Translations under genes and position numbers: made by a program
Virus record (IMG/VR): IMGVR_UViG_3300017565_000002
Location: 64,001-128,000 of that record
From: a virus
Taxonomy: Duplodnaviria; Caudoviricetes
Reading direction: 5' to 3' (one strand)
DNA: 64,000 nucleotides
Shown here: positions 2,378 through 58,312 of the stretch, piece by piece
Numbering within the stretch: the first letter of the stretch is position 1
How the letters are laid out: each line of letters opens with the position of its first letter
Notes under the pieces: generated by a model
The model's input: the letters and a program-made list of their open reading frames with translations, nothing else
What the model was told of the DNA's origin: nothing
Databases searched by the model: none

Positions 2378-3568
2378 ATGTATCGTGATAGACTGAGGAT
2401 ATCGGCACATATAGCCGATATCCATATTGGTGTTCATACTATTACCGCGGAAGAGATTAAATATCAGTTATACGAGAGATTTATTAAACCACTAAGTGAA
2501 CTAGCTATACTAGACCTTATCACTGTCAACGGGGATGTGTCCCATTTATCATTGTCGTTTAACTCAAAACTTGCTGAAGTTTATATCTGGTTCTTCGATA
2601 GTATCGTGTCTATCGCAAAGAAGAAGAACGCCGCAATTATCGTCGTTCAGGGTACATTATCCCATGAATACGATCAGCTTGACAATGTCAAAGTGTATCA
2701 GTCAAGTGTTGAAATGTACTTCGCATCAGAACCTATGGTTGTAGAAACCAAGGGGATGCGAATCTATTGTCTTCCAGATATTCATATCAAAAATAAGGAA
2801 GACGAATCTAAACTTTATAGCTTTCCCGATGGTCACTTTGATATGGTATTGGGCCATGGGAGTATAACGGAAACACAGTTTATTAAACAAGAATCCGAAC
2901 ACGCGATATCAAAGAATATTGTCTACGAGAGTAAGCAACTCGTAAGAATCTGTAAAGGACCAATTCTGTTCGGGCATATACATAGTCCGATGAAGTTTCT
3001 GGGGCGGATCTTCTACATCAATTCCTTTACGCGGTATATCCACGGGGAAGAAGCCGACAAAGGATGGATGTTAACTGCTTATATCCCCGAGACTGCACAG
3101 TTTATTGCAGAGCGGGTGATCAACGACCTCGCATTTAACTTCAATATCTTCACAGTTAGCCACCAGTTGTTTGATAAATTGGATGCAGATGAACTTGTTA
3201 AGAAGATTGACAAATTCGTCAAAGAATATAAAGTAGATCGACTTTGTCTGGAGCTTAACTACATGGCAACAGACGCAAATATCGCCAAGATTCAAATCTT
3301 AAGGAATTACTATAGTAGAGATAAGCATGTCAACAAGCTGAAGATTAAAGCGTTAAGTAAGAAAGAAGCCCAATTGATTGAGCAAAATGAACGTCAAATC
3401 GAAGAGAATAAGAAAAGTTACTTGACAGATAAATCGCTTACTTTTGAAGAAAAGCTTCAACGATTTATTGAGGAGGAATACAACGTAAAGGTTCCAATAT
3501 CGAAATTACACACCGTATTTACCAGTGACGATCTACTCATACGCGAAGGAGTGTCAAGCGTACGATGA
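2378..3568 (+). CDS. sbcD: SbcD/Mre11 (gp47-like) metallophosphoesterase nuclease
   Basis: HIADIHIG, VNGD, GTLSHE, GHG and GHIH motifs. ATG 2378 follows AAAGGGTGA. Confidence 0.85.
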   Translation: MYRDRLRISAHIADIHIGVHTITAEEIKYQLYERFIKPLSELAILDLITVNGDVSHLSLSFNSKLAEVYIWFFDSIVSIAKKKNAAIIVVQGTLSHEYDQLDNVKVYQSSVEMYFASEPMVVETKGMRIYCLPDIHIKNKEDESKLYSFPDGHFDMVLGHGSITETQFIKQESEHAISKNIVYESKQLVRICKGPILFGHIHSPMKFLGRIFYINSFTRYIHGEEADKGWMLTAYIPETAQFIAERVINDLAFNFNIFTVSHQLFDKLDADELVKKIDKFVKEYKVDRLCLELNYMATDANIAKIQILRNYYSRDKHVNKLKIKALSKKEAQLIEQNERQIEENKKSYLTDKSLTFEEKLQRFIEEEYNVKVPISKLHTVFTSDDLLIREGVSSVR

Positions 3569-6328: not shown

Positions 6329-6727
6329 TTAGGAAAATGGTACAATAATGGCTTCTTTGAAATCAAGATCGGGAATATAGATCTTTACCTTACTGCCGGT
6401 CGGGAATGTATCATATCGATAATTGATATTACTCTCATAGGCGTAGGAGATCTCCCGGTGATGCCGCTTAAATAAGTCCGAAACTTTTATGGATACGTAG
6501 TTGAGATCCGTAAAGAGTTGAGATACCACAATATTCTCTTTAGATACAAACATCGTTTTATGGATTGGAATTGAAAGAGGTTTGGATGTCGCCGTCTTAT
6601 CCGTCATGATTGCCGGGATAAACACATCCATACTGGGTGAATTGGCTGAAAAACTACTTATGGTATAACCAATCATATATTCTTTAAGACCAGGCGTTCT
6701 GATTTTTGGAATCATTAAATATAACAC
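6329..6727 (-). CDS. hypothetical protein, possibly structural
   Basis: 132 aa, co-oriented with the gp53-like gene, RBS GAGAGGTG. Confidence 0.65.
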   Translation of the reverse strand: MLYLMIPKIRTPGLKEYMIGYTISSFSANSPSMDVFIPAIMTDKTATSKPLSIPIHKTMFVSKENIVVSQLFTDLNYVSIKVSDLFKRHHREISYAYESNINYRYDTFPTGSKVKIYIPDLDFKEAIIVPFS

Positions 6728-8472: not shown

Positions 8473-8484
8473 AACAGATGAATA
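8473..8484 (+). promoter_or_regulatory. late-type promoter AACA-N6-TA (+1 at 8484)
   Basis: AACA-gatgaa-TA immediately before a structured GC-rich block. Confidence 0.55.
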
Positions 8485-8640
8485 TCCGATTGGGCCGCGC
8501 GGATTGCGGGGCTAGTTTCGGATACAGCTTAGGGTATTATACCTCGGTCGTTGAGAAGATTGGCCGATCGAGGTATTTACCCGACCCCAAACCCCAATAT
8601 CTCCCCATACGCCCGCTCTCAGCGTATGGGGAAACTACTT
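8484..8640 (+). ncRNA. candidate structured small RNA (~155 nt), family unknown
   Basis: Stems ATCCGA/TCGGAT, CCGCG/TGCGG, GGGTA/TACCC, ATACCTC/GAGGTAT and GGTCG/TGGCC. G-U pairs favour the + strand. Ends in the hairpin TCCCCATACGC/GCGTATGGGGA (8602-8632). Confidence 0.6.
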
Positions 8641-8665
8641 TTAAATTAATTCTAATTATACATCA

Positions 8666-26008: not shown

Positions 26009-28198
26009 ATGGAACCCAAGAAGATTGTAAAGCGACTGAATCGATATATTGATGAAAATCGGTATGCGTCAGCTGCTAGTCTCGTATCATCACCCGATGT
26101 GGCCGAGAGCTTGTTATCATACTTGTATTGGGTGGAGAGAAACATCTCCAATCGCGGAGATTATGATGAAGTAATGAAAGACATAGAAGAAGCAATTGAG
26201 ACTGTTATTAAGGTTTCCAAACTTCTCTATGACATCAACTGGACAAGAACTGGGCTTATGTTCAGACTTATGCCGGACGAAGTGTATGACAATTTGCTTG
26301 AGCGTTATAAGAGTATCAAAGATCAAGAGCCGTTCCCGGACAAAGTATTCTCTGGAATGAGAGATGAATCTCACGACTTTCCTGAATTGGTGGGTACACT
26401 GGATAAGGCATATGAGATTCGAGACATCAGTGACAAAATGTCGCTTGAGAAGTTCTTGAAAAGAATTATGACGTCTATGAACTTGAAGCGATTGGCTATT
26501 GGTATTGGTGAGAAGTACGACGGAACTTCTATTTCGGCAACCTTCTCAACAGTTTCTACATTGACTATTCCATTAAAGGCAACTTCCCGCGGAGACTTCA
26601 TTGAAAATAAAGGAGTCGACATGAGTCGATTGGTCATCGGGCGTAAGGGATTTGGTATAGGCCCATTCCATACCCTGATGGATAAAATGGGTATCCAATA
26701 TGAGGTGATGATCACCGAGGATGGAAGGAATCAGTTATCGAAGCTGACCGGAATCAACTATTCGACTCGTCGAGCAGCCGCTACAGCCGCTGTAAAACGG
26801 CTTACCCATGGCGATCTGTCACAGGATGAGGTTGAAAAGTTCTTTAAATGCATATCTTTGGTCCCACTGAACGTCAATGAGCAATTCCTACGTGTACTAG
26901 ATCTGAGCTGGTTTCAAGCGATGGATCAACTTGGAACTGTTGCAAAGTATGGAGACATCACACCTAAGATTGATATCATTGAGGGTACGTTAGAGGAACT
27001 CTTGGTTCAGTTTACCGACTACGTAGCGAAATATGCAGCCCTCAGAAACACATTGCCCTACAATATTGATGGGCTAGTAGTTTCCGTTGTCGATGAAGCT
27101 GTGCGTAAGGAATTGGGAAGATCCAACAATAAGAATCGTTGGCAAATTGCCTATAAGTTCAATGCATTAGTAAGACGAACGAAGGTAATTGGTATCCTAA
27201 CCACACAAGGACGTCAAGGGTTTTTAGGCCATAACATCCTGTTTGATCCAATCGAGTTCAATGGTGTGCAGTATGATAAGGCACCTGTGAATAATGTGAC
27301 TCGATTTAATGGATTGGATTTACGCATTAGAGATGAAGTATTAGTCTCCTATAATGCAGATGTGATGGGATATCTATATAAAGACGATACCTGTGTGCCA
27401 AACCCCGACGGAAAGAAGATTAAACTTCCGAAACGGTGTGTCAACTGCGAAGAACCGCTAATCATCGTAAAGGATATGCTCAAGTGTACAAACGAGGATT
27501 GCCCCGGTCAACAGATTGGGCGTATCTTAGAGGTTATTCGTATTTTGGATATCGATTTCTTCGGGGAAGAAACAGCTCAAGCCCTGACTGAGAATGGTAT
27601 CACAAATGCGATTGACTTCATCAGTATGGACAGGGATACATTAGCTAAAGTGCTTGTCGGAAAGAACTTGGACAAAGCATGGAAGCAATTCCGGGATAAG
27701 ATAGAAGCCGAGATTGACTATGCAAAAGTAGTGGATCTCCTCCGAGTACCTTCTCTCCGGACGAAGACAGCCAGAAAGATCTTGGATCACATTGGTGTTA
27801 CCAAGTTTCTATCCTTGATGGTAGGTTCTGCAACGCAAACGGGTCAACGCTATCTGGCTAAATCTCTCACAGAAGTTCCGGGTATTAATAAGAATGCGAC
27901 AGGATTTGCCGAGGGGTTAGCAGCTAAGCTTGATGAATTTAATCGACTTGTTGGGCTACTGAATGTCGTAGAAGGAACCCAACCAGTATTTGATAAAATG
28001 GTATTGGTATCAGGGTTTAGACGGGATGACACATTCGAGGAAATCTGTAAGAAATTGAACTATGGTGTGACAGATTCGGGGAAATATGATATTCTGGTTG
28101 TGACACAAGACCGGCTAGATGGGTCTAAAGCACGTGCTGCTCGAAAATCCGGAAAACCGATCTATACGCTTCCGGAATTTATTTCCAAATATAAATAA
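26009..28198 (+). CDS. ligA: NAD-dependent DNA ligase
   Basis: DEVYD, EKYDG (adenylated K), SRGD, DGLV, AYKF, C4 Zn finger, HhH repeats, BRCT-like tail. Confidence 0.95.
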   Translation: MEPKKIVKRLNRYIDENRYASAASLVSSPDVAESLLSYLYWVERNISNRGDYDEVMKDIEEAIETVIKVSKLLYDINWTRTGLMFRLMPDEVYDNLLERYKSIKDQEPFPDKVFSGMRDESHDFPELVGTLDKAYEIRDISDKMSLEKFLKRIMTSMNLKRLAIGIGEKYDGTSISATFSTVSTLTIPLKATSRGDFIENKGVDMSRLVIGRKGFGIGPFHTLMDKMGIQYEVMITEDGRNQLSKLTGINYSTRRAAATAAVKRLTHGDLSQDEVEKFFKCISLVPLNVNEQFLRVLDLSWFQAMDQLGTVAKYGDITPKIDIIEGTLEELLVQFTDYVAKYAALRNTLPYNIDGLVVSVVDEAVRKELGRSNNKNRWQIAYKFNALVRRTKVIGILTTQGRQGFLGHNILFDPIEFNGVQYDKAPVNNVTRFNGLDLRIRDEVLVSYNADVMGYLYKDDTCVPNPDGKKIKLPKRCVNCEEPLIIVKDMLKCTNEDCPGQQIGRILEVIRILDIDFFGEETAQALTENGITNAIDFISMDRDTLAKVLVGKNLDKAWKQFRDKIEAEIDYAKVVDLLRVPSLRTKTARKILDHIGVTKFLSLMVGSATQTGQRYLAKSLTEVPGINKNATGFAEGLAAKLDEFNRLVGLLNVVEGTQPVFDKMVLVSGFRRDDTFEEICKKLNYGVTDSGKYDILVVTQDRLDGSKARAARKSGKPIYTLPEFISKYK

Positions 28199-28208
28199 AT
28201 TGAGTTCT

Positions 28209-28220
28209 AACAATTTATTG
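28209..28220 (+). promoter_or_regulatory. late promoter AACA-N6-TG (+1 at 28220)
   Basis: AACA-atttat-TG, 8 nt before the closing helix of the RNA candidate. Confidence 0.55.
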
Positions 28221-28540
28221 AATCTGAATCTTAGTCGAAGGGTCGCCAGAGGCGATTTTGGATCAAATCTCTTCGTACTCATAATCGCTTTACCGTAGAC
28301 GGAACTGACTGTGCATGTGCGCGGCGGCGAACAATGGGCTAGGGATGTGAAGAGTGCAGGTTGTTTTACCATCGGCCTTGTACTGAAGAATTCCAACGCT
28401 CGGTTTGCATTCTGTCATTTGAGGGAGAGCTGGAGACTGATACGGAGGTACGATCAAACAATTCCAAATGGACCCTGTTTGACTAAGGTGATAAGATCAG
28501 TAACGGACTGAGCCATAAAGGTGCTCAGTCCGTTATCTTT
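28220..28540 (+). ncRNA. candidate large structured ncRNA (core 28228-28489, ~262 nt), family unknown
   Basis: 5' ATCTTAGTCGAAGGGTC pairs with 3' GACCCTGTTTGACTAAGGT. Nested helices 28273-80/28445-53, 28327-32/28403-08 and 28353-60/28376-84. G-U pairs favour the + strand. Confidence 0.7.
28501..28540 (+). terminator. terminator closing the ncRNA candidate
   Basis: 13-bp perfect stem TAACGGACTGAGC/GCTCAGTCCGTTA followed by TCTTT. Confidence 0.8.
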
Positions 28541-28653
28541 GTCGAGTAATTTATAATGACCCATAAAACTAAAAATAGCATGAAATGCGGGAATGTATAG
28601 AAAGAAAAAGGCCTAACCATTTCAAATATTTTAAAACACTACAACGACCAATG

Positions 28654-28662
28654 ATATATTAT
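28654..28662 (+). promoter_or_regulatory. early promoter motif ATATATTAT
   Basis: Upstream of 28706. Confidence 0.55.
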
Positions 28663-28705
28663 AGGATAGTATAACCACTTTAAATCTCGAAGGAGATGGA
28701 AGACA

Positions 28706-29470
28706 ATGATTGAAGCGTACATTAGTTTAAAGACTGCTAAGAAGGTTATGGATTTGGCTGACTGGAAAGACTTTGTCAAGCAAATCACAAAGGAAGCCGA
28801 TGACAGAGACAAAGCCAAGGAAAATATGGATATGGTCATACAGGCTCATATTACCTCGGCGATATCGCAGGCAATTCCGCGTGCTGTGTATTTGAAAGTG
28901 CTTGAATTGTCGAAGCAGGGTCAATTGGAAGATGGTGAGATAGTTGGCTCCGTACATATCGGACCATTATCATATAGTGCAATTGTTTCACGTCAAGAGG
29001 AAAACGGTACAGTTTCCGTCACCCCTCATTTGGATTCCACAGATCCAAACGGCGAATCTTGGTCGTATCAGCTATTCGAGCGTAAGCCATACAAACATCC
29101 CGAGCTTCTGCAAATCATTGCAACGCAAATACTGGATAACGAAGATATCCTGATCGAATGCGTCCGCAATTTCTTTGCAGGATGGACATACGATTCCAAT
29201 AAGGATGTATGGGTTGAAAATGATGCCATGTTTGATTTAAGTTTCACGGATAGCGATATCTCGCATTTTATCGCAATTCACATCATGACGTTATTGTATG
29301 CGCTCGTCAATTCACTTGGAGAGGATGATGCGGAGGGCTATTCCGGTGTGCATATCCCACAGGAAGGTACCTATCTAATTTCCACTTCGTCTGACGGGAC
29401 GATGGTTGTAAGCTTGGTGCCAGACGTTAATTACAAACTTGCAATCAAGAACGACAGACTCAAGTTGTAG
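28706..29470 (+). CDS. hypothetical protein, paralog of 29569-30273
   Basis: SAISQAIPRAVYL, IPQEGTY and AIKNDRL shared with the neighbour. Confidence 0.8.
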   Translation: MIEAYISLKTAKKVMDLADWKDFVKQITKEADDRDKAKENMDMVIQAHITSAISQAIPRAVYLKVLELSKQGQLEDGEIVGSVHIGPLSYSAIVSRQEENGTVSVTPHLDSTDPNGESWSYQLFERKPYKHPELLQIIATQILDNEDILIECVRNFFAGWTYDSNKDVWVENDAMFDLSFTDSDISHFIAIHIMTLLYALVNSLGEDDAEGYSGVHIPQEGTYLISTSSDGTMVVSLVPDVNYKLAIKNDRLKL

Positions 29471-29568: not shown

Positions 29569-30273
29569 ATGGCAAAATCCTTTATCGAACTTACAAATGA
29601 GGCAACAGTTGCGGCATTCGAATGCCAGCAACTCAACGACGGGCAAGAGAAACATGCCCCCGTCGATTTGGTACTGCAATCTATCATCGATTCCGGCATC
29701 TCAGCGGGAATTCCGAGGGCACTATATCTCCTGATGGAGAAAGATCCACGGGAGGAAGTGTCGATTGAAGTCGGCCCGTTTACGTACGGTGTATCGCTGA
29801 AGAAAACCGGCGAGTCGATGTCGCTTAACCCGATGTTTTCGTTAACCAACGAAAAGAAGACGATCAATGAGTTGGGCGAATATGAAGAAAAGATGATCAA
29901 ACTTATCCCACTCATTGATTCTGTTTCCCAGTCGATCACCAATGATCTGCTGCTCGAAACTGTCATTCATACTTGCAAATTGGACGAGTACGACACAACA
30001 ACTTCCGCATGGGTTGAAAAGGTCAACGACGCGGACAAGGGTGTCGATCTCGACCGGTATACGGTATCGTTCCTGATTGCTTCCCATGTGGTCGCAATTC
30101 TGCACGTACTCGCCAATCAGCGCAATGCCGAGGAATTGGTGAAGTATGAAGTGCCGGGTGAAGGTACTTATACGATCCAATCCGTCAAAGGCAAATGGGA
30201 AATCGGATTCATTGCAAGCAAAGAGTTCAAGCAGGCTATCAAGAACGACCGTTTGGTGGACGCCCTGGCATAA
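29569..30273 (+). CDS. hypothetical highly expressed protein, possibly HU/IHF-like fold
   Basis: C-ending codon bias; VPGEGTYTI...FIASKEFKQAIK resembles the HU beta strand and final helix; terminator at 30288-30322. Confidence 0.8.
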   Translation: MAKSFIELTNEATVAAFECQQLNDGQEKHAPVDLVLQSIIDSGISAGIPRALYLLMEKDPREEVSIEVGPFTYGVSLKKTGESMSLNPMFSLTNEKKTINELGEYEEKMIKLIPLIDSVSQSITNDLLLETVIHTCKLDEYDTTTSAWVEKVNDADKGVDLDRYTVSFLIASHVVAILHVLANQRNAEELVKYEVPGEGTYTIQSVKGKWEIGFIASKEFKQAIKNDRLVDALA

Positions 30274-55877: not shown

Positions 55878-56785
55878 TGACAACGAAAACCGCTGATGAG
55901 CAGTTCAATGCACTTGTGATGGACATTTACGAAAACGGGGTGTGGGAACAACCCGAGGACATTCGAGCTAAATGGGCGGACGGCACACCGGCAGCCACAA
56001 AAGCTGTAAATGATGTCCAATTGAAATTCGAAAATCAAGACGATAATAAAGCTCCGATTCTAACAACCAAGTTTGTTGCATGGAAAACGGCGATACATGA
56101 AATATTATGGATTTGGCAGCAGAAGAGTAATGAGATATCCTATCTGCAAGAACGCGGTATTCATATTTGGGATTCATGGGCAGTCCGTAACCCACTTGGT
56201 GGTTTCGGTGGGACGATCGGCAAGGGATATGGTTTCCAATTGAATGAGAAATGTCGTTCGGTTTTCATGCCGAGACCAGATTCTAATTCTGTGTGGACGC
56301 ATTCGTCAGTCGAGATGGACCAAGTGGACTATATGCTCCATTTACTTACCACATCTCCGGGTAGTCGCCGTAACATTGTCACACTCTGGGATAAAAACGA
56401 TTTGGACTACATGACAATCACACCCTGCGTCTGGAGCAGTCAATGGATTCGTAAAAATGGCAAGTTAAACTTGACGGTTAACGTCAGGTCCAATGACATC
56501 TGCGTAGGGAATCCCTTTAATGTGTTTCAATACTACGTGCTACAGCGGATGGTTTCTCAAGTAACGAATATCCCAATGGGTACATTGGTATTTAACATCA
56601 CCGACGCCCACATCTATGATCGTCATTTGGAAACAGCAGTCATCCAAGTCCAAGAGCCTATGTTTGAACCGCCGGTCTTGGAAATTGATCCTTCCGTCAA
56701 GAACTTCTATGATTTCCGCATTGAGCATTTCAATCTGGTTAACTACCAGTATTCGAAGAAATTTAGTTACGAAGTTGCTATATAA
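55877..56785 (+). CDS. thyA: thymidylate synthase
   Basis: PILTTK, AIHEILWIW, IWDSW, YGFQ, RRNIVTLW, PCVW, RSND, NVFQY, DAHIYDRH. Confidence 0.95.
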   Translation: MTTKTADEQFNALVMDIYENGVWEQPEDIRAKWADGTPAATKAVNDVQLKFENQDDNKAPILTTKFVAWKTAIHEILWIWQQKSNEISYLQERGIHIWDSWAVRNPLGGFGGTIGKGYGFQLNEKCRSVFMPRPDSNSVWTHSSVEMDQVDYMLHLLTTSPGSRRNIVTLWDKNDLDYMTITPCVWSSQWIRKNGKLNLTVNVRSNDICVGNPFNVFQYYVLQRMVSQVTNIPMGTLVFNITDAHIYDRHLETAVIQVQEPMFEPPVLEIDPSVKNFYDFRIEHFNLVNYQYSKKFSYEVAI

Positions 56786-56836
56786 TAATGAGGGGCTGTG
56801 AATCTTGAATTCACGGCCCACATTTTTTAGACTGGA

Positions 56837-58312
56837 GTGTATGAGATGGATTCTATTACTGCGAATTATTCACACTATATCGTTCCCGAATACGAAATCG
56901 GGGATTGTGTACGACTGGAGCGAATATTATCTCGATACGACAAACGGAGGTTTCGTCTCAACCCTATTGGGTTTGTCTACGATGCTGAAAAGAAAGAATT
57001 GAGAATCCCAAGAGGGTTGTCAGAGACGCTATTGGAGAGCGTAACGAGACGGAAGATTGTTTATAATGATCAACCCAATGCTTTTGATAAGACGAATATA
57101 AAATTGACGCATCCACCACGGGAGAAATTGCAGGTTCGAGTTATCTCCTTCTTGTGTGGTGGGAGTAGCAAGTATGCCTATACAAAGAATCATACTCAAT
57201 TATTTTGTGATTTGGAAACGGGGAAAGGAAAGACTTATTGTGCCACAGCATCTATTACACATTTCAAACAAAAGGCTGTGGTGTTCACACCGAGTCGAAT
57301 CAGTAAGATAAATGACCAGTGGATAGATACCATACTATCCACGACGGACAGAAAGGAAAAACACATACTGGAAGTCGTAGGGTCAAAAACTTGTTTGGAG
57401 ATTATAGACGGTAAACACCAAGACGTCGAATTCTTTATCTTTGGACGTGCAACGGCTTCATCTTTTGCCAAAAAACATGGATGGGATATGTTCCAGAAGA
57501 TGATTGAAATGACACGTGCGGGGATTAAGATTATTGACGAAGCACATATGGATTTTGAGACAAATGTCAAAATTGACTGCTACTCTAATGTGAAGCGTAA
57601 TTTCTATCTTACAGCTACCGCAGGACGAGGTTCGATTGAAGAGGATATCGTATTCAAAAAGTTATTCGAAGGTGTGCCTATTTTGGGCATGGAACTTACA
57701 ACTATCGAGAATAATTACATCATGATGTTTATATTCCTCTACTCCCATACACCAACGATTGATCAGCGTCTTTCATGTAAGACGAAAGATGGATTATCCG
57801 CTGCATTGTATTCGGAATATCTGGCAAATAAAGAAGGTGCTAGATATGCCTTTTTCACTGCAATGGATAAAGCCATTAAGACAATCGTTATGAAGTACCG
57901 AACAGACGGCGGCAAACTTCTGATCTTAGGATCTACCAGAGAACTACTTAAGACCATCAAGAAATTCCTCGAAGTCAATTATAGTGAATTTTCTATTGGT
58001 ATGTATACGGGGGATGTCGATCGTAAAGAGCGTGAGCAAGAATTGGATAGAGACATTATCCTAGCAACCGATAAAGGTATCGGAACTGGTGCTGATATAA
58101 ACAATCTCCAATTCTTGATTAACGTTATTCCGTATAGTAATAAGATCTATGCAAGTCAGTTATCCGGGCGACTCCGTAATAATGGAAAGCTCGTATTCTA
58201 TATGGAACTTGTCAATAAAGATTTCCATGAGGCGATGGAGCAGTTTGAACGTCGCAAACCACATCTTGCGAAGAAAGCCAAGCAGGGCAAACTGTTCATT
58301 ATAGACGAATAA
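56837..58312 (+). CDS. SF2 helicase (UvsW-like)
   Basis: TGKGKT, DEAH, LTATAGR, GTGADI, QLSGRLR. Confidence 0.9.
   Translation: MYEMDSITANYSHYIVPEYEIGDCVRLERILSRYDKRRFRLNPIGFVYDAEKKELRIPRGLSETLLESVTRRKIVYNDQPNAFDKTNIKLTHPPREKLQVRVISFLCGGSSKYAYTKNHTQLFCDLETGKGKTYCATASITHFKQKAVVFTPSRISKINDQWIDTILSTTDRKEKHILEVVGSKTCLEIIDGKHQDVEFFIFGRATASSFAKKHGWDMFQKMIEMTRAGIKIIDEAHMDFETNVKIDCYSNVKRNFYLTATAGRGSIEEDIVFKKLFEGVPILGMELTTIENNYIMMFIFLYSHTPTIDQRLSCKTKDGLSAALYSEYLANKEGARYAFFTAMDKAIKTIVMKYRTDGGKLLILGSTRELLKTIKKFLEVNYSEFSIGMYTGDVDRKEREQELDRDIILATDKGIGTGADINNLQFLINVIPYSNKIYASQLSGRLRNNGKLVFYMELVNKDFHEAMEQFERRKPHLAKKAKQGKLFIIDE

Follow-up and report, generated by a model that had tools for sequence, protein, structure and literature searches.

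A new, clade-restricted family of predicted late structured RNAs downstream of the DNA ligase gene in uncultivated AR9-like jumbo phages

What occupies the long gap behind the DNA ligase gene of an uncultivated jumbo phage? The stretch of DNA that we analyzed (here called the window; 64,000 nucleotides [nt]) comprises bases 64001 to 128000 of a viral record that is 215,803 bp long and has direct terminal repeats. At about 92 kb of that genome, a 507-bp gap separates a gene for an NAD-dependent DNA ligase from an open reading frame (ORF) of 254 amino acids (aa). The ligase gene (26009 to 28198, plus strand; 729 aa; Pfam DNA_ligase_aden, OB, and HHH_5), our upstream syntenic anchor, has on its 5' side an RNA polymerase beta-like gene (Pfam Rpb2_6; PHROG RNA polymerase beta subunit). 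By ligase, the nearest cultured phages are AR9/PBS1-type Bacillus phages and Staphylococcus jumbo phages, at only ∼26% identity, and to judge from sequence the source is an uncultivated, distant AR9-like jumbo phage. An initial inspection of the letters of the window (the sequence-only reading) had proposed that the gap holds a discrete late RNA of no known family, framed by a promoter and a terminator of its own. The element is present in a single copy in the genome.

We found that the plus strand of the gap is predicted to form a rod-like RNA body of ∼280 nt (28220 to 28501) with paired termini, both in minimum free energy (MFE) folds and in the consensus of the window with its relative L002. 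The terminal helix, P1, joins 28219-28244 to 28471-28499 (plus strand) and carries one compensatory change relative to L002 (columns 12 to 24 with 257 to 270). The pairing of 28228-28244 with 28471-28489 that had been noticed initially was recovered in the plus-strand MFE fold and reaches further, 28219-28225 being joined to 28494-28499. All of the nested rod that had been described was likewise present in the MFE structure (28273-80/28445-53, 28327-32/28403-08, GGGAT/ATTCC at 28342-46/28390-94, and 28353-60/28376-84). Two short hairpins, TCGCC/GGCGA and GATTT/AAATC, fared less well, as they form part of the MFE fold of the window but are not kept in L002, its closest relative. Beyond these helices, a side hairpin stands on the 5' side of a three-way junction (28306 to 28326, plus strand; helix 1 of model R2), and the apical arm (28327 to 28408, plus strand; helices 2 to 4 of model R2) consists of a base helix, GCGAAC/GTTTGC, two inner helices, and a 9-nt apical loop.

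The folding energy of 28220-28545 on the plus strand was −116 kcal/mol, with z = −4.2 against dinucleotide shuffles when the terminator was included. The body alone (28223-28495) also folded below its dinucleotide-shuffled controls, modestly (z = −2.6 to −2.9), and the signal on the minus strand was weaker (z of about 0 to −2.4). The gap had also been described as a GC-richer noncoding block; it has no conserved ORF, but its GC content is only mildly higher (0.47 to 0.49 versus ∼0.41 to 0.45). Because the single-sequence folding signal in the window is modest, the case rests on comparison with relatives.

The body is framed by signals known from AR9. Just upstream of the rod, as the sequence-only reading had pointed out, lies an AACA-N6-TG motif (AACAATTTATTG; 28209 to 28220, plus strand) that follows the AR9 late-promoter consensus, AACA-(6N)-TA/G, the last base of which is the start site as mapped by dRNA-seq (PMC5312081); the predicted start is G28220. 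Across the whole window, AACA-N6-TR occurred 51 times where shuffled sequence led us to expect 81, and none of 100 shuffles had fewer than 51, so the motif is not enriched; its depletion is consistent with selection against spurious late promoters. Downstream of the body, we identified a terminator-like hairpin with a T-rich tail (ATCTTTGT; 28502 to 28542, plus strand), with 12 perfect pairs and a 9-nt loop. What had been called a perfect 13-bp terminator is indeed a strong hairpin (28502-13/28523-34), but its thirteenth pair forms only across a bulge. A consensus terminator scan missed this hairpin (28502-28534) because its loop is 9 nt long. Outside the RNA, an early-promoter-like motif, AATGATATATTAT-N6-G (28650 to 28669, plus strand), would serve the next gene and resembles the AR9 early consensus, AAATATATATTAT-(6N)-G (PMC5312081). 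This early consensus (ATATATATTAT-N6-G) is kept almost letter for letter at 28650-28669 and at the equivalent places in L002 to L020, and from these sequences the promoter code of the virion polymerase seems far more stable than the genes that it serves.

Among the large gaps of the genome, only one other unit of such layout was observed, at 8473-8645 of the window (plus strand). There, a late motif (AACAGATGAATA) precedes a predicted RNA of ∼155 nt that starts in a hairpin (MFE, −68.3; z = −5.0) and is followed by an 11-bp terminator hairpin and an early-promoter-like motif at ∼8719. This unit had no Rfam match.

We fetched the corresponding loci of relatives from metagenomes and viral contigs by way of ligase homologs with 46 to 60% identity. 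After removal of duplicates, 13 distinct loci remained, including the window, all from uncultivated AR9-like jumbo phages. Every one of them has an RNA polymerase beta-like gene, the ligase gene, an uncalled gap, and a gene of ∼235 to 260 aa; in the window, this last is the 254-aa gene (28706 to 29470, plus strand), which belongs to a family conserved in the loci and gave us the downstream syntenic anchor. Behind the ligase gene, the same succession was found in 13 of 13 loci: a late motif, a rod-forming stretch of 270 to 335 nt with no called gene, a hairpin, and an early motif. The promoter-rod-hairpin unit is thus conserved in position throughout. In all 13, the rod has the late motif at its 5' edge (in the form AACA-N6-[T/C][A/G], L012 having C for T), and in L002 and L004 the motif overlaps the ligase stop codon. 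Given a background of ∼1 such motif per 1,000 nt, this placement is not due to chance, even if only the subgroups defined below are counted as independent. In each locus, the body (counted from the base that precedes the predicted +1) has its first 1 to 4 bases paired to the distant 3' region and is followed on its 3' side by a perfect hairpin of 11 to 15 bp (−17 to −27 kcal/mol). An early-promoter motif stands 40 to 90 nt past the hairpin in 13/13 loci; counted from the end of the T-rich tail in the window, the distance is ∼110 nt. The plus strand gave the better folding z score in 12 of the 13, with values from −0.4 to −10.1; three subgroup A members folded at only −0.4 to −1.7.

Some loci carry peculiarities of their own. 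In L010 (∼3048-3085) and L011 (∼6521-6560), AAUCACU follows the hairpin in place of a U tract, so termination is uncertain in these two relatives, and this end may represent a different 3'-end signal or a processing site. In L009 (6213-6737) and L024, an ORF of 174 aa made of ∼46-residue tandem repeats lies between the ligase gene and an intact RNA unit. In L007 (6189-6846), an ORF of 94 aa with two CxxC pairs lies directly 3' of the ligase gene, and a late-promoter motif occurs ∼320 nt past the stop codon, close to the contig end.

The loci fall into three subgroups that track ligase relatedness: subgroup A (the window, L002, L004, and L015), subgroup B (L008, L011, L012, L014, and L020, plus the distant members L013 and L010), and subgroup C (L005 and L009, both AT-rich). 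Within subgroup A, nhmmer ties the window to L002 (E = 4e-6), and a covariance model of the core (side hairpin plus apical arm) retrieved exactly the four members. Between subgroups A and B, neither covariance models nor nhmmer profiles gave a significant cross-match, and we infer that the subgroups share an ancestor only from their position, size, and topology and from the signals that frame them. The search for members outside these loci was broad. AR9 and BpSp have no gap after the ligase gene and no match to either covariance model anywhere in their genomes, which confines the family to the uncultivated clade. A DNA similarity search of 50,697 phage records found no match, a scan of viral contigs with the conserved subgroup B DNA pattern returned six known loci and two chance matches that the model rejected, a ligase-alignment scan of metagenome contigs yielded duplicates only, and a scan of genome contigs for further members found none.

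Comparison among relatives provided the support that folding of a single sequence could not. In the core of subgroup A, 80.6% of cells were paired, compared to 31 to 41% in slid controls, and 20 of 35 pairs had changed on both sides, a value that 0 of 500 shuffles matched; these figures come from four sequences only, and the shuffle control ignores relatedness. Both sides had changed in 4 of the 8 pairs of the side hairpin and in 16 of the 27 pairs of apical-arm helices 2 to 4, which were 82 to 90% paired. When the window was aligned to L002 over the full length, 21 of 62 consensus pairs were compensatory and none was broken. In the seven sequences of subgroup B, 92.3% of cells were paired (42 to 50% when slid) and 51 of 66 pairs were compensatory, again with 0 of 500 shuffles as high. 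In subgroup C, 10 of 50 consensus pairs were compensatory. The alignments behind these counts were fitted to models, the sequences are related, and 4, 7, and 2 sequences are too few for per-pair statistics. Compensatory substitution maintains the helices even as their sequences diverge almost completely.

The same alignments indicate which strand folds. G-U cells far outnumbered A-C cells (60:5 and 27:7), which argues that the folded molecule is plus-strand RNA, not DNA or the opposite strand, and pairing fell by 12 to 14 points when the alignments were read as DNA or on the other strand. Together with the conserved unit, the covariation, and the lack of a conserved ORF, this strand specificity supports the proposal of a discrete late RNA.

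We found that the three subgroups have a topology in common: a long closing rod, a three-way junction with a hairpin on its 5' side (the equivalents of the side hairpin are found in subgroups B and C too), and an apical arm with internal loops. One of these loops stands out in its sequence. Its purine-rich 5' strand, GTGAAG (28347 to 28352, plus strand), is near-invariant in the four sequences of subgroup A, where it takes the form GWGAAK, and its 3' strand, CTGAAGA (28383 to 28389, plus strand), is invariant there. The helices on either side covary and are wholly rewritten between members while the loop stays fixed. Five subgroup B members have a 4-by-4 loop, GGAU opposite UGAA, in the corresponding position, and every one of the seven members of that subgroup has an unchanged UGAAAA bulge. 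The apical loops are variable, at 9 to 13 nt.

Does a described RNA family accommodate this molecule? At the gathering score, Rfam 15 assigned no family to the window or to 12 relatives, in keeping with the sequence-only reading; the permissive E-value mode gave only chance matches driven by the terminator hairpin, and a tRNA/tmRNA scan found none. The doubts already raised about kinship with signal recognition particle (SRP) RNA, 6S RNA, and retrons proved justified. For 6S RNA (RF00013), there was no model match at E values up to 10 (window 28100-28720 and L012 6430-6830), and the fold has a three-way junction and small internal loops, with no large central single-stranded bubble. For bacterial large SRP RNA (RF01854), there was no Rfam match and no helix 8 with a GNRA loop and symmetric/asymmetric loops, and the 5' Alu domain is absent, since in 13/13 loci the 5'-most bases of the predicted transcript are joined straight to the 3' end. 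A retron noncoding RNA (msr-msd) was rejected because the whole 215.8-kb genome has no RVT_1 match and the neighboring genes lack a reverse transcriptase domain; the terminal helix does provide retron-like inverted repeats that pair the ends, a feature common to many RNAs and not diagnostic. Y RNA/YrlA was set aside as well, as the phage has no TROVE (Ro) domain and Rfam gave no match.

In subgroup A, the conserved loop is G/A-rich and measures 6 by 5 nt, and its counterpart in subgroup B measures 4 by 4; this is not the asymmetric K-turn layout, in which tandem sheared G-A pairs come after a bulge of three nucleotides. L7Ae is absent from the phage, although a host protein could serve at a K-turn-type site. 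Searches of the phage for partner domains gave no match to SRP_SPB (the SRP54 M domain), L7Ae, dsrm, or Bac_DNA_binding (canonical HU). An antisense regulator of a phage gene was rejected because no complementarity longer than 12 nt was found in the phage's own genome. A 15-nt same-sense match at genome position 63305, inside a reverse-strand coding region, looks like chance. We looked for the features by which 6S, SRP, retron, and Y RNAs are defined and did not find them, and we conclude that no described family accommodates the RNA and that the family is new.

Taken together, these results point to a real, new, clade-restricted family of predicted late structured noncoding RNAs. The element is very probably a genuine RNA gene. 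The explanation that we favor, and consider probable, is that it is a stand-alone gene for a structured noncoding RNA that is transcribed late and acts in trans by binding protein, and that it founds this clade-restricted family. A trans-acting ribonucleoprotein role, as scaffold or decoy, is on its own a tentative assignment. The sequencing runs that contain the element are soil DNA metagenomes, with no RNA run among them, and for this reason we count transcription as inferred. By the promoter grammar of AR9, the RNA would be a late product of the phage non-virion RNA polymerase, starting at G28220, ending at the hairpin (28502-28534), and measuring ∼320 nt. With both ends buried in helices and a stable 3' hairpin, the RNA would be protected from exonucleases and could accumulate as a long-lived molecule. 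It would then act in trans as a protein-binding scaffold or decoy, with the invariant G/A-rich loop of the apical arm, GTGAAG opposite CTGAAGA, as the likeliest predicted recognition site. Sequence constraint in purine-rich apical-arm loops is the usual sign of protein or tertiary contacts, not of antisense pairing, and together with the buried ends and the stable hairpin it leads us to favor a trans-acting ribonucleoprotein.

A more specific version of the trans-acting reading draws on the two genes that follow the RNA in every locus. The 254-aa product and that of the second downstream gene (234 aa; 29569 to 30273, plus strand) are paralogs with 28% identity. Both are early genes that occur in RNA-bearing loci, and the pair is specific to the clade, cultured phages having yielded no sequence match. 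For the 234-aa protein, AlphaFold2 gave a confident model (pLDDT, 90.7) that contains two repeats of a helix-helix-three-strand-helix unit. By VIA-align, the whole model matched single-chain IHF (Z = 7.1 over residues 1 to 232), and each half matched HU/IHF proteins at Z = 3.6 to 4.0; Foldseek, Pfam, PHROGs, tblastn against phages, and the ESM Atlas gave no support for an HU/IHF fold of the downstream proteins. On the strength of the model, we tentatively regard the 234-aa protein as a single-chain, tandem HU/IHF (DNABII)-like fold. The RNA could then be a late decoy or partner of these early, putatively DNA-bending proteins, which we consider unlikely. As a decoy, the kinked, bulged late rod would pull DNA-bending proteins off the genome before packaging; alternatively, RNA and protein might form a phage ribonucleoprotein analogous to the scRNA-HBsu particle of Bacillus. 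Were either so, a bacterial virus would have a new type of RNA-based temporal switch.

The element might instead act in cis, an unlikely reading under which it would be either a structured 3' untranslated region that stabilizes the ligase mRNA or a late leader whose hairpin serves as a regulated terminator, controlling late read-through into the two downstream genes, perhaps by feedback binding of the products of these genes. Several features of the locus fit such a role: the ligase gene has no terminator before the rod, the L002 and L004 promoters overlap the ligase stop codon, the late promoter stands upstream of the early promoter and its gene in 13/13 loci, and the window holds a second unit of like layout at 8473-8642. 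In AR9, moreover, continuously expressed genes are preceded by both a late and an early promoter (PMC5312081). The hairpins themselves speak against conditional termination, being long, perfect, and, at −17 to −27 kcal/mol, unlike typical conditional terminators. The rod also closes on itself 2 to 68 nt before the hairpin, and inspection of two loci for antiterminator-type pairing between the 3' strand of the rod and the hairpin revealed a 5-bp possibility in the window and none in L002, so that no conserved alternative pairing was seen. Finally, the distance from hairpin to gene and the content of that interval vary, L012 having extra sequence and an extra ORF there.

Another rival reading makes an RNA polymerase the partner. 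In this decidedly unlikely case, the RNA would be a 6S- or Ms1-like regulator that binds the host holoenzyme or one of the two multisubunit phage RNA polymerases by promoter mimicry, thereby aiding the switch from early to late transcription or silencing the virion polymerase before packaging. Its rod shape, its paired termini, and a size close to that of Ms1, which is ∼300 nt long, are compatible with this, as are the predicted late promoter and the location next to an RNA polymerase beta-like gene. In two reports, AR9-type late promoters are described as being read on a uracil-bearing template strand (PMC5449584, PMC9209446), which makes an RNA mimic conceivable. What counts against the idea is that neither a 6S nor an Ms1 model matched, even at E values up to 10, and that the consensus folds show a three-way junction and small loops instead of a large open central bubble. 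On inspection, the template-strand copy of the late motif, YA-N6-UGUU, was also absent; UGUU occurs in the apical loop of two of the four subgroup A members only, without the YA element, and we therefore rejected the apical loop as a mimic of the late-promoter template strand.

It is very improbable that the inverted repeats belong to a DNA-level element with RNA-like appearance, such as a replication origin, packaging site, cruciform, or recombination site. The surrounding replication and transcription module (the RNA polymerase beta-like gene, the ligase gene, and a 605-aa polymerase-like gene) would suit such an element. The strand-specific G-U excess and the loss of pairing when the alignments are read as DNA argue against it, as do the promoter and terminator that frame the element in every locus. 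A replication origin in particular was rejected on the basis of cumulative GC skew, which turns at ∼60 kb and 168 kb, whereas the element is at 92 kb. The skew minimum at ∼60 kb lies near a 460-bp gene-free gap (56418-56878) just upstream of the window, which makes the region at ∼56.4 to 60 kb of the genome a candidate replication origin.

A small protein gene is scarcely credible: ORFs of 59 to 66 aa do overlap the region in the window (among them a 66-aa GTG ORF at 28311-28511), but L002 has no plus-strand ORF longer than 27 aa and L015 none of at least 25 aa, no ORF is shared within subgroup A (the products are unmatched, with a best E value of 0.4), an ORF of ∼40 aa common to three subgroup B members is broken in L008 and L020, and substitutions track base pairing, not codons.

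Why would such an RNA matter? To our knowledge, structured noncoding RNAs of several hundred nt with clear covariation are rare, and those that have been studied usually do something unusual. Very little is known of noncoding RNAs in jumbo phages, to which a 2026 review of the biology of these phages devotes a single sentence (PMC13282480). The family described here is tied to one promoter class, that of the predicted AR9-type, uracil-reading non-virion RNA polymerase, and to a fixed genomic position. With its promoter class and position defined and its structure well supported, the RNA lends itself to synthesis, to probing, and to use as bait without any need for cultivated phages. Should it prove to be a decoy or scaffold, it would point to a further level of regulation in phages with transcription machinery of their own.

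Comparison with known systems helps to place the RNA. It resembles 6S RNA and mycobacterial Ms1 in being a stand-alone, mostly double-stranded rod with paired 5' and 3' ends and a size in the range of Ms1, and by analogy protein sequestration is plausible; it differs from them in its three-way junction with a side hairpin, in being phage encoded under a phage late promoter, and in having no Rfam match. The small cytoplasmic RNA of Bacillus (large SRP RNA; 271 nt), which binds both Ffh and the HU protein HBsu, is similar in length and elongated fold, and the phage gene adjoins genes for proteins of possible HU/IHF fold. Unlike that RNA, it has no SRP model match, GNRA-capped helix 8, or 5' Alu fold, and an SRP54 M domain is missing from the phage. 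With adenovirus VA RNA I and other abundant viral rod decoys, the analogy is one of function only: they too are viral, late, and highly structured, and the common shape, in which a central junction links a terminal to an apical stem, may be suited to titrating a host or viral protein. There is no homology in sequence or structure with VA RNA I, the virus, host, and polymerase differ, and no bacterial target is known. In genomic layout, the RNA recalls type I 3'-UTR small RNAs such as DapZ and MicL, which lie directly behind a coding gene, share its terminator, and have their own promoter at or over the stop codon; it is three to four times longer than these, almost fully paired, and has no evident single-stranded seed. 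It resembles GOLLD and ROOL, phage-associated RNAs to which no function is known to belong, in being a large structured RNA carried by phages and supported by covariation, and it differs from them in its length (∼300 nt versus 600 to 800), its lack of an Rfam match, and its restriction to one jumbo phage clade and one fixed locus.
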